A DNA stretch of 64,000 nucleotides from a virus. Location: UHGV virus genome UHGV-2031204; one strand, given 5' to 3'. Shown here in pieces: positions 9,701-60,121 of this stretch. Under the pieces are notes generated by a model, which was given only the letters and a program-made list of their open reading frames with translations, searched no databases and had not been told where the DNA came from. The translations under genes were made by a program, and so were the position numbers. Each line of letters opens with the position of its first letter. Within the stretch, counting starts at the first letter, position 1.

Positions 9701-9731
9701 AAAATATCTGAGAAAGATATTATCTATGTGA
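9701..9731 (+). promoter_or_regulatory. conserved promoter-like motif, copy 2 (AAGATATTATCTATGTGA)
   Basis: One of two tandem copies, 80 bp apart, upstream of the strongly codon-optimised gene at 9855. Confidence 0.5.
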
Positions 9732-9780: not shown

Positions 9781-9811
9781 AAAATATCTTAGCTAGATAT
9801 TATCTACGTGA
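9781..9811 (+). promoter_or_regulatory. conserved promoter-like motif, copy 3 (TAGATATTATCTACGTGA)
   Basis: Core ends about 45 nt upstream of the ATG at 9855. Confidence 0.5.
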
Positions 9812-9854: not shown

Positions 9855-11702
9855 ATGGCTAAAGAGTTTATTGACAATCAAAACGACGTTGTGACTGGTG
9901 CTGCTGGTTCCGCTGCAGATCCAATTCCGTCTTTCGGTGGCGCGGGAGCTGCTACTGTGGATAATACCAATGCGGCCAACGCTTTTGGTGGGATGTCTAA
10001 AAACATCTCTACTTTCGATAAAGCTTTCGGATACATGTCTTTCGTGTCCACTGCTTCTCAGTTCACCAGCCTGATTGAGAAGATGGCGGAGAAGAATACA
10101 TACCTGCGTAACTTCCGTTGGGGTGTTATTGACGGCATCAACTCTGAAATGGGTTCTGCTGCATACGTGGCTGGTCCGTCTGGCGATAACCATAACGAAT
10201 GGCTCTACGGCATCCTGTTCTTTGAACATGGCCAGTCCATCCGTTTCTACGAAATCAACGGTAAAGAAAACTACTACACCCTGGCGCAGCTGTTCAGCCA
10301 AGAAGGTGTGATGAACAACATCACTAACCAGATTGCAACTCAGCACAACCTGCCAAGCGTACAGTTCATGGTAATGAACTGCGTACCGGAACTGGGTAAA
10401 ACCATGAACGAAGAATGGGCTAACCAGCTCATGGGCCAGATTGCACTGGGTATCTTCGGTCGTCATTCCGGCTACCTGGGCTACCTGAAAATGACCCGTT
10501 CTGATCGCTTCACCGCGCAAGTCAGCGTAGTTGAAGAAGGTTCTGTAACTGATGTTAACGGTTCTGCACAACGTGCTGACCTGATGGTTGTGGTTGACCA
10601 TACTCGCACCGGCAACAACGATAATAACCCGACGCTGTTCTCTTCTGAACGCCTCCAGAATTATCCGAGCGTTGCAGGTGTTGGTTACATCAACCTCCGC
10701 CATAAAGGTAAACCTCAGACCCTGACTAACGGTACTCAGGACCTGCGTCAGCTGGAAGCCGAAGTGGTTGTTTCCCTGATGGATTCTCAGTCCTCTGGGG
10801 CAATGGCACCTATCGAGCGTCAGCTGATTGAACTGGCCGCGTTCGCACAAATCGCCACTATCGGTGGCTGGCGTGAACGTTTCATGCAGTCGCTGAACAA
10901 AACCGATCGCCGCTTCTCCCGCGTTCTGGAGTATGTAGAATGGGGCAGCGAAAAACCTGACCTGAGCAAAATCGACGGTAACCGTGAAGTTATCGAGAAA
11001 TGCCTGGACACCTTCGCTAACCCGACTGCGGCCCTGGTGGTGAACCATCGTGCAGGTAACGGTATCGGTGGTCTGTCTACTCTCCTGAGCGAAATCGGGA
11101 TGGGTAACACCAACGCACTGTACACCCTGTTCAATATCCTGGATAACATGGCCAGCAACGGCGCGACTAAGTTCAGCACTCGCTTCAAAGCACTGCTGGG
11201 CAATGTCACCAACTTCGAGTGCAAACACGTTGTTATTGCCGGTTGCCCGACCATCTCTGGCCAGTATTTCAGCAACAGCCAGAAACGCAGCTTCCAGGAT
11301 ATGGACTTGGTTTCCGCTCTGACTAAAGTGGGTGATAACCAACGCGATGCGATCGACTACATCAGTGCACAGTCCTACTCTCACCGCTATCTGAATGCGC
11401 GTGACCAGCGTCTGTACCTGCTGAAAATGGCTGCGTCCATGTTCGGTAGCAAACAGCCGCAGGTAACGGGTGAAGCGTCTGACCTGGCGATCAATCCGCT
11501 GTTTGGTAAAGCACTGGTGGAATACATTACTGAAAACTGCAACTTCCAGGTGAATGGTGTTACCGCAGCGAACAGCCTCACTCACTCTGTGTTTGTTAAC
11601 ACGGGTAATGAGAACTTCGCGCTGTCTGGTAGCGGTCCTAACGCATTTGGTAGCGATTTCGGTATGTCCTTCGCTGCAACTGACTGGCGTCCGACTTTCT
11701 AA
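9855..11702 (+). CDS. putative phage-nucleus shell protein (chimallin-like); alternatively another very abundant protein
   Basis: 615 aa with AAGGA upstream; strong bias to high-expression codons (CTG, CGT, GGT, AAC); Gly/Ala-rich N-terminal segment. Sits directly upstream of the RNAP beta-prime N gene, as phiKZ gp54/gp55 does (recalled, not searched). Size matches known chimallins (about 600-700 aa). Confidence 0.6.
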   Translation: MAKEFIDNQNDVVTGAAGSAADPIPSFGGAGAATVDNTNAANAFGGMSKNISTFDKAFGYMSFVSTASQFTSLIEKMAEKNTYLRNFRWGVIDGINSEMGSAAYVAGPSGDNHNEWLYGILFFEHGQSIRFYEINGKENYYTLAQLFSQEGVMNNITNQIATQHNLPSVQFMVMNCVPELGKTMNEEWANQLMGQIALGIFGRHSGYLGYLKMTRSDRFTAQVSVVEEGSVTDVNGSAQRADLMVVVDHTRTGNNDNNPTLFSSERLQNYPSVAGVGYINLRHKGKPQTLTNGTQDLRQLEAEVVVSLMDSQSSGAMAPIERQLIELAAFAQIATIGGWRERFMQSLNKTDRRFSRVLEYVEWGSEKPDLSKIDGNREVIEKCLDTFANPTAALVVNHRAGNGIGGLSTLLSEIGMGNTNALYTLFNILDNMASNGATKFSTRFKALLGNVTNFECKHVVIAGCPTISGQYFSNSQKRSFQDMDLVSALTKVGDNQRDAIDYISAQSYSHRYLNARDQRLYLLKMAASMFGSKQPQVTGEASDLAINPLFGKALVEYITENCNFQVNGVTAANSLTHSVFVNTGNENFALSGSGPNAFGSDFGMSFAATDWRPTF

Positions 11703-50300: not shown

Positions 50301-50336
50301 AAATAATTTTCAGATATATATTACCTAGGTGAGATT
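50301..50336 (+). promoter_or_regulatory. conserved promoter-like motif, copy 6 (TTCAGATATATATTACCTAGGTGAGA)
   Basis: 26-nt stretch identical to the copy at 58563..58588; about 50 nt upstream of the ATG at 50385. Confidence 0.5.
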
Positions 50337-50384: not shown

Positions 50385-51026
50385 ATGAGCCGCATTAATT
50401 TAACTGATTTTGTTGATGGTGTTGTGTCTACGGATAAAGGTGTTGTTACGATGGTGGCACCGAATAGTAAAGTTGTTACTTTAAATCCGGTAGAACTGAT
50501 TTCTATTTCTACCTGGTTGCGCTTACTTTCTGGTAAGAAACCTAAAGACCAAGCGAAGGGTGGCCTATTAGTTGGTACACGTGAGTTTGTTTTCAAAGAC
50601 ATAACCCAAGATAAACTGGACAGCATTGCTAAAGAACTGAACGGCAAGCATAAAACTCGCGACATCGGGTGTGCCGAATATGACGGAGTAACGTACCATG
50701 CGTTTCTTGATAGTCACGTAGCATTGCGTGAAAAAGAAAATGGGATGTACGATTCAGTTTGTTTCTTTCACTTAATCGCACCAACAGAAAACGAAGCTGT
50801 GTATGAAACCGTTGAAAAATCGGCGGAAGCTGTTATGGAAACGGTGTCAGAACTTATAGAAGGGATGAAAAGAATCCCACGTGTGTTGAAAGTTACTGAT
50901 GGGGCTTTCGATTGTTTTAAATTATTACCCCTAATAGCTAGTAAAGAATACGAAGATGAGAACACCTTCGGACTATTCGAAATTAGTCTTTCGGAAGCAG
51001 TTGTTACTTTCTTTGAAGATTTATGA
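50385..51026 (+). CDS. hypothetical protein (about 213 aa)
   Basis: Track ORF trimmed to the ATG at 50385 (AGGAG upstream), placing the promoter motif outside the gene. Confidence 0.55.
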   Translation: MSRINLTDFVDGVVSTDKGVVTMVAPNSKVVTLNPVELISISTWLRLLSGKKPKDQAKGGLLVGTREFVFKDITQDKLDSIAKELNGKHKTRDIGCAEYDGVTYHAFLDSHVALREKENGMYDSVCFFHLIAPTENEAVYETVEKSAEAVMETVSELIEGMKRIPRVLKVTDGAFDCFKLLPLIASKEYEDENTFGLFEISLSEAVVTFFEDL

Positions 51027-58401: not shown

Positions 58402-58560
58402 AAACTTCCCGTTACCTCTATGGGTAACGGGAATACCTTTTATTTATTCCTAAACGACACGCAGAAGTCATTTAACCGTTAAGACGACTAATTACCCTTT
58501 AAAAAGAAAATTGCGTCAGAATGCGTTTTAGAGCGTTCTAGAGGGTATATGGATTCAAAA

Positions 58561-58590
58561 AGATTTCAGATATATATTACCTAGGTGAGA
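58561..58590 (+). promoter_or_regulatory. conserved promoter-like motif, copy 7 (TTCAGATATATATTACCTAGGTGAGA)
   Basis: Identical over 26 nt to the copy at 50311..50336; about 50 nt upstream of the small gene at 58637. Confidence 0.5.
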
Positions 58591-58636
58591 GTTTACGTAA
58601 TACTCATTTATCGAATACCTAATTAGGAGTTATATC

Positions 58637-58780
58637 ATGATTTCTGTAAAACACAAAAAAGCTATCTTCGCTGTTGTTATCGCTGTTGTTCTGGGTTGCC
58701 TGTATCTGGACATCGACAAAGGCTACGACACTTGCATCGACAACGGTAATTCCGTTGCACAGTGCACTGGTCGTGGTTAA
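58637..58780 (+). CDS. small (47 aa) highly expressed membrane or lipoprotein-like protein
   Basis: Not in the ORF track (under 60 aa). ATG after AGGAG; MISVKHKKAIFAVVIAVVLGCLYLDIDKGYDTCIDNGNSVAQCTGRG has a signal-like hydrophobic core, a lipobox-like VLGC and 3 Cys; strongly codon-optimised; own promoter motif and terminator. Confidence 0.55.
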   Translation: MISVKHKKAIFAVVIAVVLGCLYLDIDKGYDTCIDNGNSVAQCTGRG

Positions 58781-58787
58781 TGTATAA

Positions 58788-58815
58788 GGCACCTTCGGGT
58801 GCCCTTAATTTTTTT
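58788..58815 (+). terminator. rho-independent terminator
   Basis: Hairpin GGCACC-ttcg-GGTGCC followed by a T-run. Confidence 0.65.
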
Positions 58816-58834: not shown

Positions 58835-59650
58835 ATGATTACCATTAAAGATTATTTTCCGCGTGGACTGAGCAATGAAAACTTCGTTCCAACTGAAGAC
58901 ATTGCCATCGTAACAGAGTCTAGTGATAAGTCTTTTAAACTCTACTTGAGTACGGCAGCAGGAAAATCCACTCTTATCCTTCGCGAACCTGAAGTGATAA
59001 GCATCTGCTCGTTTGGGGGTGGTGTAGAAGGAACGATTAATTGGTTGAAATCCAGAATGCATCGTTTGCTTATCGTGAACACCGATCCTGTGATTCGTTT
59101 ACAGCAATTGAAATCGTTGAATGAAGTTATCGTCGGATTATTGGAACATGAAACGTTCGGTAATGCAGCGATTGCGGAAGAGATTAAATCTGTAGAACTA
59201 ATCGAGTGGAGTGATATCGAATACGAACGTGCTGCGTTATTCGCAATGTACGGTGACGATAATCCTGTTGTGTTTGCACAAACATTAGATAACGTTACAG
59301 TAACAGCGCGCGTATTGTTTGGCTTACAGCGTGTTGAGTTTGAACTGAAACACGTTTATGTAAGTAATACTCCAGAGATGGTGGAAACGTTGACTCGTGC
59401 GTTCGCTTACCCGTTAGACGGAGAATGGGAACAGCAGATTAATGAAGCGTTAGGCGCGATGCTGTTCTTAGCAGGCACACTAAGGAAAGAAGAGAAATTA
59501 GAAGGTCGTGTTTATCCAGAATACGATTTTGTTTGTGAAGAATGTGGAGCACAGTATCAAATACGTGTTCCTTTAACCGGCCTGACAATCCCGAAAGCCA
59601 ACGTGCAATGTAAGGAATGTGGCCATGTTCAATACGTAGCGACTAAATAA
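58835..59650 (+). CDS. hypothetical protein with C-terminal zinc-ribbon-like motif
   Basis: 271 aa; GGAG upstream; C-terminus CEECG...(21 aa)...CKECG. Confidence 0.55.
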   Translation: MITIKDYFPRGLSNENFVPTEDIAIVTESSDKSFKLYLSTAAGKSTLILREPEVISICSFGGGVEGTINWLKSRMHRLLIVNTDPVIRLQQLKSLNEVIVGLLEHETFGNAAIAEEIKSVELIEWSDIEYERAALFAMYGDDNPVVFAQTLDNVTVTARVLFGLQRVEFELKHVYVSNTPEMVETLTRAFAYPLDGEWEQQINEALGAMLFLAGTLRKEEKLEGRVYPEYDFVCEECGAQYQIRVPLTGLTIPKANVQCKECGHVQYVATK

Positions 59651-59656
59651 AAGCAA

Positions 59657-59700
59657 CCCCTAATCCCGAAAAGGATTAGGGGTACACTTTATTTATTTTC
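59657..59700 (+). terminator. rho-independent terminator
   Basis: Stem CCCCTAATCC / GGATTAGGGG with loop cgaaaa, then a T-rich run. Confidence 0.6.
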
Positions 59701-59947: not shown

Positions 59948-60121
59948 ATGAACAATGGTTACTACTTTACTGACAAAATGCTTGCAGAACAGAGTGCAGC
60001 AAAGACCAATTTACAGCAACGTATCTACAAGTATAGTCAGCTCGGCATGGATAAACGGTTAAAACCGTCTACCAACCGTTTCACGCAGATATTCACCGAA
60101 AAGAGGAGTGAACACTACTAA
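59948..60121 (+). CDS. small hypothetical protein (57 aa), repeat-family member
   Basis: MNNGYYFTDKMLAEQSAAKTNLQQRIYKYSQLGMDKRLKPSTNRFTQIFTEKRSEHY; paralogous to the 60346 ORF and the remnant at 59708. Confidence 0.4.
   Translation: MNNGYYFTDKMLAEQSAAKTNLQQRIYKYSQLGMDKRLKPSTNRFTQIFTEKRSEHY

Follow-up and report, generated by a model that had tools for sequence, protein, structure and literature searches.

A compact transcription unit of an SPN3US-like jumbo phage encodes an apparently abundant 47-residue microprotein, most likely a tiny inner-membrane protein

Small membrane proteins are routinely overlooked or stay annotated as "hypothetical." One that has been described is MgrB of Escherichia coli (PF13998), a 47-residue membrane peptide that inhibits PhoQ and needs both of its periplasmic cysteines for activity. 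Phage T4 makes two early superinfection-exclusion proteins that act at the envelope: Imm, which has two transmembrane segments, and Sp (spackle), which is cleaved and soluble in the periplasm. Llp of phage T5 and Cor of lambdoid phages are small lipoproteins of the outer membrane, made early, and block the receptor of the phage; the disulfide of Llp is functionally important. We know of no account of what nucleus-forming jumbo phages do to the host envelope during the first minutes after they infect a cell.

The early promoters of these jumbo phages, read by the virion RNA polymerase (vRNAP), are their only promoter class that bioinformatics can detect by a long, conserved, AT-rich motif, and they sit upstream of operons of hypothetical proteins (PMC7598289, PMC11512511). 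The gene chmA is part of the early programme transcribed by vRNAP (PMC10541120).

The locus described here lies in a 64,000-nucleotide stretch of the virus genome UHGV-2031204, the whole of which is called the window below. Its parts are as follows.

58523-58552, plus strand: two tandem GCGTTnTAGAG units (GCGTTTTAGAGCGTTCTAGAGGG), directly upstream of the promoter motif.
58564-58590, plus strand: promoter motif TTTCAGATATATATTACCTAGGTGAGA, a putative early vRNAP promoter, recognized by two exact copies, core conservation and placement.
58591-58636, plus strand: 5' untranslated leader, with the ribosome-binding site AGGAG at 58625-58629, 7 nt before the ATG, as read from the sequence.
58637-58780, plus strand: coding sequence of the 47-residue microprotein, ortholog of SPN3US gp66 (phrog_8574), translated as MISVKHKKAIFAVVIAVVLGCLYLDIDKGYDTCIDNGNSVAQCTGRG; residues 1-8 form the predicted basic cytoplasmic end, residues 9-24 the hydrophobic anchor and residues 25-47 the periplasmic tail with Cys33 and Cys43.
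58788-58815, plus strand: intrinsic-type terminator, GGCACC-TTCG-GGTGCC followed by seven T, from the terminator scan.

The initial annotation had proposed a self-contained unit of promoter motif, gene and terminator at this site, with a strong ribosome-binding site ahead of the gene, and all of these elements were found at the positions listed. The locus is a compact promoter-gene-terminator unit and probably a nearly monocistronic one.

As judged from its genes and nucleotide similarity, the source of the window is an undescribed SPN3US-like, nucleus-forming jumbo phage. The 20 kb around the unit show approximately 76% nucleotide identity over 44% of their length to genomes of Salmonella SPN3US-type and Erwinia jumbo phages, a similarity to known phages that is patchy. 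The gene order is that of SPN3US, running from the internal head proteins (PF12699) to the gp55-type operon, the structural genes and the helicase. The window also holds an ortholog of ChmA, the ORF at 9855-11702, whose product shares 50% identity with SPN3US gp22 along its entire length. YP_009153316 is tabulated as the SPN3US nuclear-shell protein ChmA (PMC10643120), and we equated this accession with gp22 through the numbering offset. The microprotein gene follows the orthologs of gp64 and gp65 and precedes a DnaB-like helicase gene, which is the place of SPN3US_0066. The identical 47-residue protein is encoded by three IMG/VR contigs, and a 98% identical one by a Logan contig.

The microprotein matched the phrog_8574 profile, whose PHROG annotation is function unknown, over the full length (residues 1-47 against positions 1-47, E = 3.4e-23). 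Its SPN3US ortholog is gp66 (SPN3US_0066 / YP_009153360), annotated as hypothetical and 53% identical over the full length. By tblastn the gene was located in 61 phage records, all from SPN3US-like jumbo phages of Salmonella, Erwinia, Escherichia or Proteus. Profile searches, which gave 30 family proteins by themselves, together with exhaustive HMMER searches yielded 36 distinct homologs, every one from SPN3US-like phages; over 1.84 billion cluster representatives, the exhaustive search returned only six family clusters and a weakly matching repeat protein, P0007. No homolog was found among 185,579 bacterial and archaeal species, each covered by one representative genome, and a match in an Undibacterium MAG, out of frame inside a 751-residue ORF, was set aside as chance. 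Pfam, NCBIfam and PADLOC gave no significant family for the microprotein, a profile search of PDB sequences gave 0 matches at E ≤ 10, and Foldseek comparison of an AlphaFold2 model with the PDB returned nothing beyond meaningless helix matches (E > 6). Other nucleus-forming phages, phiKZ and Goslar among them, lack the family, which is therefore not a core function of the nucleus-forming lifestyle. A literature search turned up no mention of SPN3US gp66 and no transcriptome for any SPN3US-like phage, and the main text of the SPN3US proteomics paper does not have it among the virion proteins named there. On the evidence of these matches, what is new is this gene as a member of a phage family that is already catalogued and uncharacterized.

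The metagenomic protein P0007 (381 residues) contains four repeats of the form Y-x-x-C-I-G-[NS]-G-x-[ST]-x-x-Q-C that resemble the C-terminal loop of the microprotein. Its match is weak (E = 9e-4) and it was not counted as a demonstrated relative; the repeats may represent a small disulfide-loop module of independent origin, or the resemblance may be due to chance.

Conservation in the family is concentrated in the C-terminal part, DYxxCxxNGNSxxxCTGRG. Residues C33, G37, S39, C43, T44, G45 and R46 are invariant in the 36 homologs, and I10, Y30, N36, N38 and G47 are nearly so. Over the last 22 codons, synonymous differences between ortholog pairs are about as numerous as non-synonymous ones. 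So many synonymous differences over a conserved peptide form a pattern of purifying selection and thus identify the 47-codon ORF, as first annotated, as a real coding gene. The window protein shares its length, position and upstream motif with SPN3US gp66 and with the phrog_8574 orthologs of Seoulvirus, Machinavirus and related Erwinia and Salmonella jumbo phages, as well as the invariant CxxNGNSxxxCTGRG and the elevated codon adaptation of the gp66 family. It differs from SPN3US gp66 in having a cysteine in the anchor and a hydrophobic span of 16 rather than 19 residues, and in standing alone in its unit, where SPN3US has gp66-gp67-gp68 and ChrisDB has gp80-gp83.

The codon usage of the gene was explored using the codon adaptation index (CAI), with the E. 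coli relative adaptiveness values of the Sharp and Li table as weights. At 0.84, the microprotein gene has the highest CAI in the window, where the 46 long ORFs average 0.31 ± 0.10 with a maximum of 0.69; the next-best values belong to two genes for internal head proteins (0.69 and 0.64) and to the ChmA ortholog (0.61). Of 16,076 segments of 46 codons taken from the long ORFs, 63 (0.4%) reached 0.84. The signature is conserved, with CAI values of 0.54-0.74 for the orthologs versus 0.21-0.39 for the downstream SPN3US genes gp67-gp72, and 0.84 in the window copy is the most extreme codon adaptation seen in the family. SPN3US gp66 ranks 6th of 220 genes by CAI, and above it stand only the major capsid protein gp75, the internal head proteins gp53 and gp54, ChmA (gp22) and one other gene. 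Of these, gp53 and gp54 are present in more than 600 copies per capsid (PMC5694885). The agreement of high CAI with proteins of known abundance validates the index as a measure in this phage group. The optimal codons proposed by the initial annotation are thereby borne out, and, with expression read from the conserved codon signature, this is very likely a real and highly expressed gene.

The promoter-motif copy proposed upstream of the gene is one of two: within the 64 kb, exact matches to the 18-mer AGATATATATTACCTAGG stand at 50312 and 58568 and nowhere else, against a shuffled expectation of 0.00. From each exact copy of the motif it is approximately 50-55 nt to a downstream start codon, which has a strong ribosome-binding site. 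Seven upstream regions, from five phages of four genera, were aligned (the two window copies, the SPN3US regions upstream of gp55 and gp66, and regions from Caitlin, ChrisDB and Huxley); the 23-nt core TCAGATATATATTACCTAGGTGA is invariant in all seven and is followed downstream by a semi-conserved TAATC...TTTTA. In the complete SPN3US genome, 16 plus-strand relatives of the motif were found at up to 7 mismatches. All 16 are intergenic, 25-232 nt upstream of the next start codon and co-directional with that gene, and one of them is upstream of gp22, that is, ChmA, next to which lies gp23, annotated as an RNA polymerase beta subunit. The motif was found upstream of the microprotein gene at 14 of 14 loci checked, at a distance of 50-900 nt and with zero to about three genes in between. 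A search for a sigma-70-type host promoter at this site found none.

These observations show a long, conserved, AT-rich motif that is intergenic, co-directional and located upstream of chmA-type early genes. Because of the intergenic co-directional placement, the site upstream of chmA and the published traits of vRNAP promoters, we read the motif as an early-class promoter; by analogy with phiKZ and 201phi2-1 and from its gene context, it is probably read by the virion RNA polymerase of the phage. The early promoters of phiKZ and 201phi2-1 likewise have a long conserved AT-rich motif in intergenic regions before operons of small hypothetical genes; they differ from the present putative one in that TCAGATATATATTACCTAGGTGA is specific to the SPN3US-like clade. 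The two GCGTTnTAGAG units directly upstream are kept ahead of the gp66-type operon in SPN3US, Caitlin, ChrisDB and Huxley and are absent from the gp55-type promoter copies, and they may be an operator or an upstream promoter element specific to the gp66-type operon.

Other copies of the motif occur in the window. The second exact copy (50308-50332) is upstream of a gene for a 213-residue protein (ATG at 50385), the ortholog of SPN3US gp55. This gene opens an operon that is inserted between head-protein genes and that includes dihydrofolate reductase in SPN3US. Two tandem variant copies, with the core AGATATTATCT...GTGA, lie at 9707-9731 and 9787-9811, upstream of the ChmA ortholog.

At the other end of the unit, the clean terminator of the initial annotation was recovered as a GC-rich hairpin with a U-tract just past the stop codon, which is the form of an intrinsic terminator. 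The hairpin begins 8 nt after the stop codon, with the stem at 58788-58803 closed by a TTCG loop and the T-run at 58809-58815, and it has a folding energy of -11.6 kcal/mol (z = -2.6 versus shuffles). A similar GCCACCTTCGGGTGG hairpin ends the corresponding unit of ChrisDB, and in SPN3US the closing hairpin sits after gp68. The content between promoter and terminator varies, from the microprotein gene alone here to gp66-gp68 in SPN3US and gp80-gp83 in ChrisDB, and the microprotein is the sole gene common to all three units whose ends were examined (the window, SPN3US and ChrisDB).

The initial annotation had described the product as lipoprotein-like, on account of a hydrophobic N-terminus with a lipobox-like VLGC and two further cysteines. 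All of these features are present: the hydrophobic segment spans A9-L24, VLGC occupies residues 18-21, and Cys33 and Cys43 follow. The VLGC is, however, lipobox-like only by a permissive PROSITE-type rule, which 15 of the 36 homologs pass, the window protein included; the canonical lipobox [LVI][ASTVI][GAS]C occurs in none of the 36, and in the variants that carry the cysteine, leucine is at -2 and not at -3. The cysteine is itself present in 17 of the 36 homologs and is replaced by V, S, A, T, I, L or W in the others, with V at the Cys21 position in SPN3US and S in Huxley; it is also missing in Asesino. Thus, neither a canonical lipobox nor a +1 cysteine conserved among orthologs, as bacterial lipoproteins have, was found in this family.

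The homologs have 2-4 Lys/Arg residues before an uncharged span with a median of 18 residues (range, 13-22), a length that suggests a signal-anchor helix; the hydrophobic span of the window protein, with 16 residues, ends in VLG-C, and that of SPN3US has 19. AlphaFold2 predicted a continuous helix from residue 4 to residue 35, an NGNS turn and a second helix at 40-44 (mean pLDDT, 80), with Cys33 and Cys43 on opposite sides of the hairpin, from an alignment of only 7 sequences and with a program that is prone to over-extended helices. Taken together, the cysteine found in 17 of 36 homologs, the lack of a canonical lipobox, the 18-residue span and the continuous helix argue for an uncleaved N-in/C-out anchor as the family trait, and the lipoprotein-like label is not upheld. 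The trait is best described as an N-in/C-out signal anchor followed by a 20-residue periplasmic hairpin, probably stapled by a disulfide. The wider proposal of a small envelope-targeted protein agrees with the basic N-terminus, the hydrophobic segment and the two invariant cysteines, as predicted from sequence. Anchoring in the membrane with the C-terminus in the periplasm is the likely topology, and the microprotein is most likely a tiny inner-membrane protein with a presumably disulfide-stapled periplasmic loop rather than a true lipoprotein.

The window protein is a variant in which processing deserves separate consideration, since a 16-residue span that ends in VLG-C makes cleavage by signal peptidase II or I possible in this phage, and lipidation is possible for the cysteine-bearing variants, this one among them. 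Processing by Lgt and signal peptidase II between VLG and C21 would leave a 27-residue lipopeptide, which in the outer membrane could mask a receptor in the way of T5 Llp and Cor. Both the true lipoprotein and its sorting to the outer membrane, which would follow from a +2 residue that is Leu and not Asp, appear rather unlikely. The n-region and the 12-residue h-region before Cys21 do resemble a lipoprotein signal peptide, the permissive rule is passed as described above, and early abundant expression would fit an Llp-like role; the Erwinia phage Kwan homolog has been auto-named "Lipoprotein" in UniRef, presumably because it passes the permissive rule. As with Llp and Cor, this is a small, presumably exported phage protein with a cysteine after a signal-like segment. 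In contrast with them, the candidate lipidation cysteine is missing in half of the family (19 of 36 homologs, including SPN3US, Huxley and Asesino), the lipobox is non-canonical, with leucine at -2, and searches of PHROGs, Pfam and NCBIfam showed no resemblance to Llp, Cor or any lipoprotein family. Moreover, the invariant C-terminal loop is difficult to explain if lineages differed in whether the product is a lipopeptide of the outer membrane or an anchor in the inner one. Less probable still is a soluble, disulfide-bonded periplasmic peptide of approximately 27 residues, released by signal peptidase I after a small-x-small site at about residues 18-20. Many homologs have A or V at -3 and A or G at -1 just before position 21 (AFA in SPN3US, ALA in ChrisDB and VLG in the window protein), and the residues that follow are hydrophobic and polar by turns (LSITVT, LYLSVS), a pattern less usual within the core of a membrane helix. 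Small-x-small is, however, not universal, with FLA/L in homolog P0004 and T at -1 in P0021 and P0030, the uncharged span (median, 18) extends well beyond the putative site, and the AlphaFold2 helix is unbroken.

With the uncleaved inner-membrane anchor as the preferred topology, the overall best explanation, which we favor by a modest degree, is a strong early unit that makes an abundant type II inner-membrane microprotein acting at the envelope. The injected virion RNA polymerase would initiate within reach of the conserved motif, at a point a few nucleotides past TATATTAC, and the leader of approximately 45 nt would supply the consensus ribosome-binding site. With nearly all of the 47 codons host preferred, very large amounts of the peptide could be made within minutes of infection, and the hairpin terminator would end most transcripts, giving a small mRNA in excess over the downstream genes. 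The product would be a type II (N-in/C-out), single-pass inner-membrane microprotein with its basic HK[KR] end in the cytoplasm and approximately 18 uncharged residues crossing the membrane. Its invariant DYxxCxxNGNSxxxCTGRG would form a small helical hairpin in the periplasm, stapled by a Cys33-Cys43 disulfide. On the periplasmic face of the inner membrane, this loop would bind a single conserved partner, which could belong to the host envelope or to the penetration apparatus of the phage itself. The microprotein could then remodel or block the envelope right after infection, for superinfection exclusion or for protection against tail penetration machinery, in the manner of T4 Imm and Sp.

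The function is placed in the loop because the anchor sequence drifts freely, whereas phages of Salmonella, Erwinia, Escherichia and Proteus have kept the loop nearly invariant. This makes the loop the likely functional part, and its near invariance points to what is probably a single conserved partner that it binds on the periplasmic side. Synthesis that is both early and very abundant suggests, in turn, a stoichiometric action on the envelope in the first minutes. Among known behaviors, superinfection exclusion or envelope protection fits best, as a tentative proposal by analogy. Small size, presumed early expression and envelope targeting in a virulent myovirus are shared with T4 Imm and Sp and make a functional analogy plausible, but no similarity to them in sequence or fold was found, neither came up in PHROGs at E ≤ 1, and no homology to any exclusion protein was found. 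A more specific version, in which the disulfide loop, facing the periplasm and hence the vesicle lumen, blocks the step on the inner membrane where an incoming jumbo phage makes its early infection vesicle, or in which the microprotein conditions that membrane for the phage's own early compartment, is speculative and improbable as it stands. If the vesicle-blocking version were true, it would amount to a clade-specific superinfection exclusion.

Two other roles for such a protein were weighed. An MgrB-like regulator would use the periplasmic loop to bind a particular protein of the host inner membrane, for instance a sensor kinase, a transporter or a stator, and inhibit it, and would serve takeover rather than exclusion. 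The architecture matches, with 47 residues, a basic N-terminus, a single transmembrane segment with a cysteine in an xLxC context (VLAC in MgrB and VLGC here) and a short tail with two cysteines 10-11 residues apart, and phages of different enterobacterial hosts share the invariant loop. On the other hand, the periplasmic sequences are unrelated, the transmembrane sequence is not conserved, and the microprotein is phage encoded and bears the marks of very high expression; a regulator of a low-abundance target would not usually be made in the amounts of a structural protein. Homology to MgrB was rejected, as there was no match to Pfam PF13998 at E ≤ 1 and hhalign gave a probability of 20% over the transmembrane segment only, with an MgrB sequence serving as the control and confirmed by its own PF13998 match at 2e-18. 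We regard MgrB-like regulation as unlikely. Far less likely is a lysis factor, whether holin, antiholin or spanin component, despite the small membrane protein format and a weak match to phrog_4297 (Rz-like spanin; E = 0.042). This match is limited to the hydrophobic segment (residues 4-37). An i-spanin would need a periplasmic tail far longer than the 23 residues present here, an o-spanin gene to partner it is lacking, and the SPN3US ortholog is approximately 110 kb from the putative endolysin gene gp198. With the domain length, the partner and the cassette context all lacking, the spanin identity was rejected. The promoter class shared with chmA, which implies early expression, together with the distance from gp198, makes a lysis role unlikely altogether.

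With low probability, the microprotein could be among the most abundant early products of the whole clade and act by a mechanism undescribed for nucleus-forming jumbo phages. The gene joins the strongest version of the promoter of this clade, a codon usage like that of the capsid and nuclear-shell genes, and a near-invariant and presumably periplasmic loop across phages of several enterobacterial genera. It is a cheap and well-defined target for functional work in SPN3US, for which genetics exist, and could reveal a mechanism of exclusion or of host takeover.

Downstream of the unit, at 58835-59650, lies a gene for a 271-residue protein with a C-terminal zinc-ribbon-like CxxC...CxxC motif, which matched phrog_10180 (E = 2e-6) and gave weak, sub-threshold Pfam matches. 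No promoter motif was found between the terminator and this gene, and its expression therefore probably depends on read-through. Long perfect hairpins with T-runs on both strands, at 58406-58433 and 59656-59683, score as bidirectional terminators and enclose a block made of the microprotein gene and the 271-residue gene. A second family of proteins of 47-48 residues, with the C-terminal sequence [I]KGLGG[ED]I, adjoins the helicase gene and is duplicated in SPN3US. Its members are SPN3US gp71 and gp72 (locus L001, 4905-5051 and 5164-5310) and Huxley gp84 (locus L004, 2870-3013), and in the window the equivalent position is occupied by a 57-residue ORF at 59948-60121.
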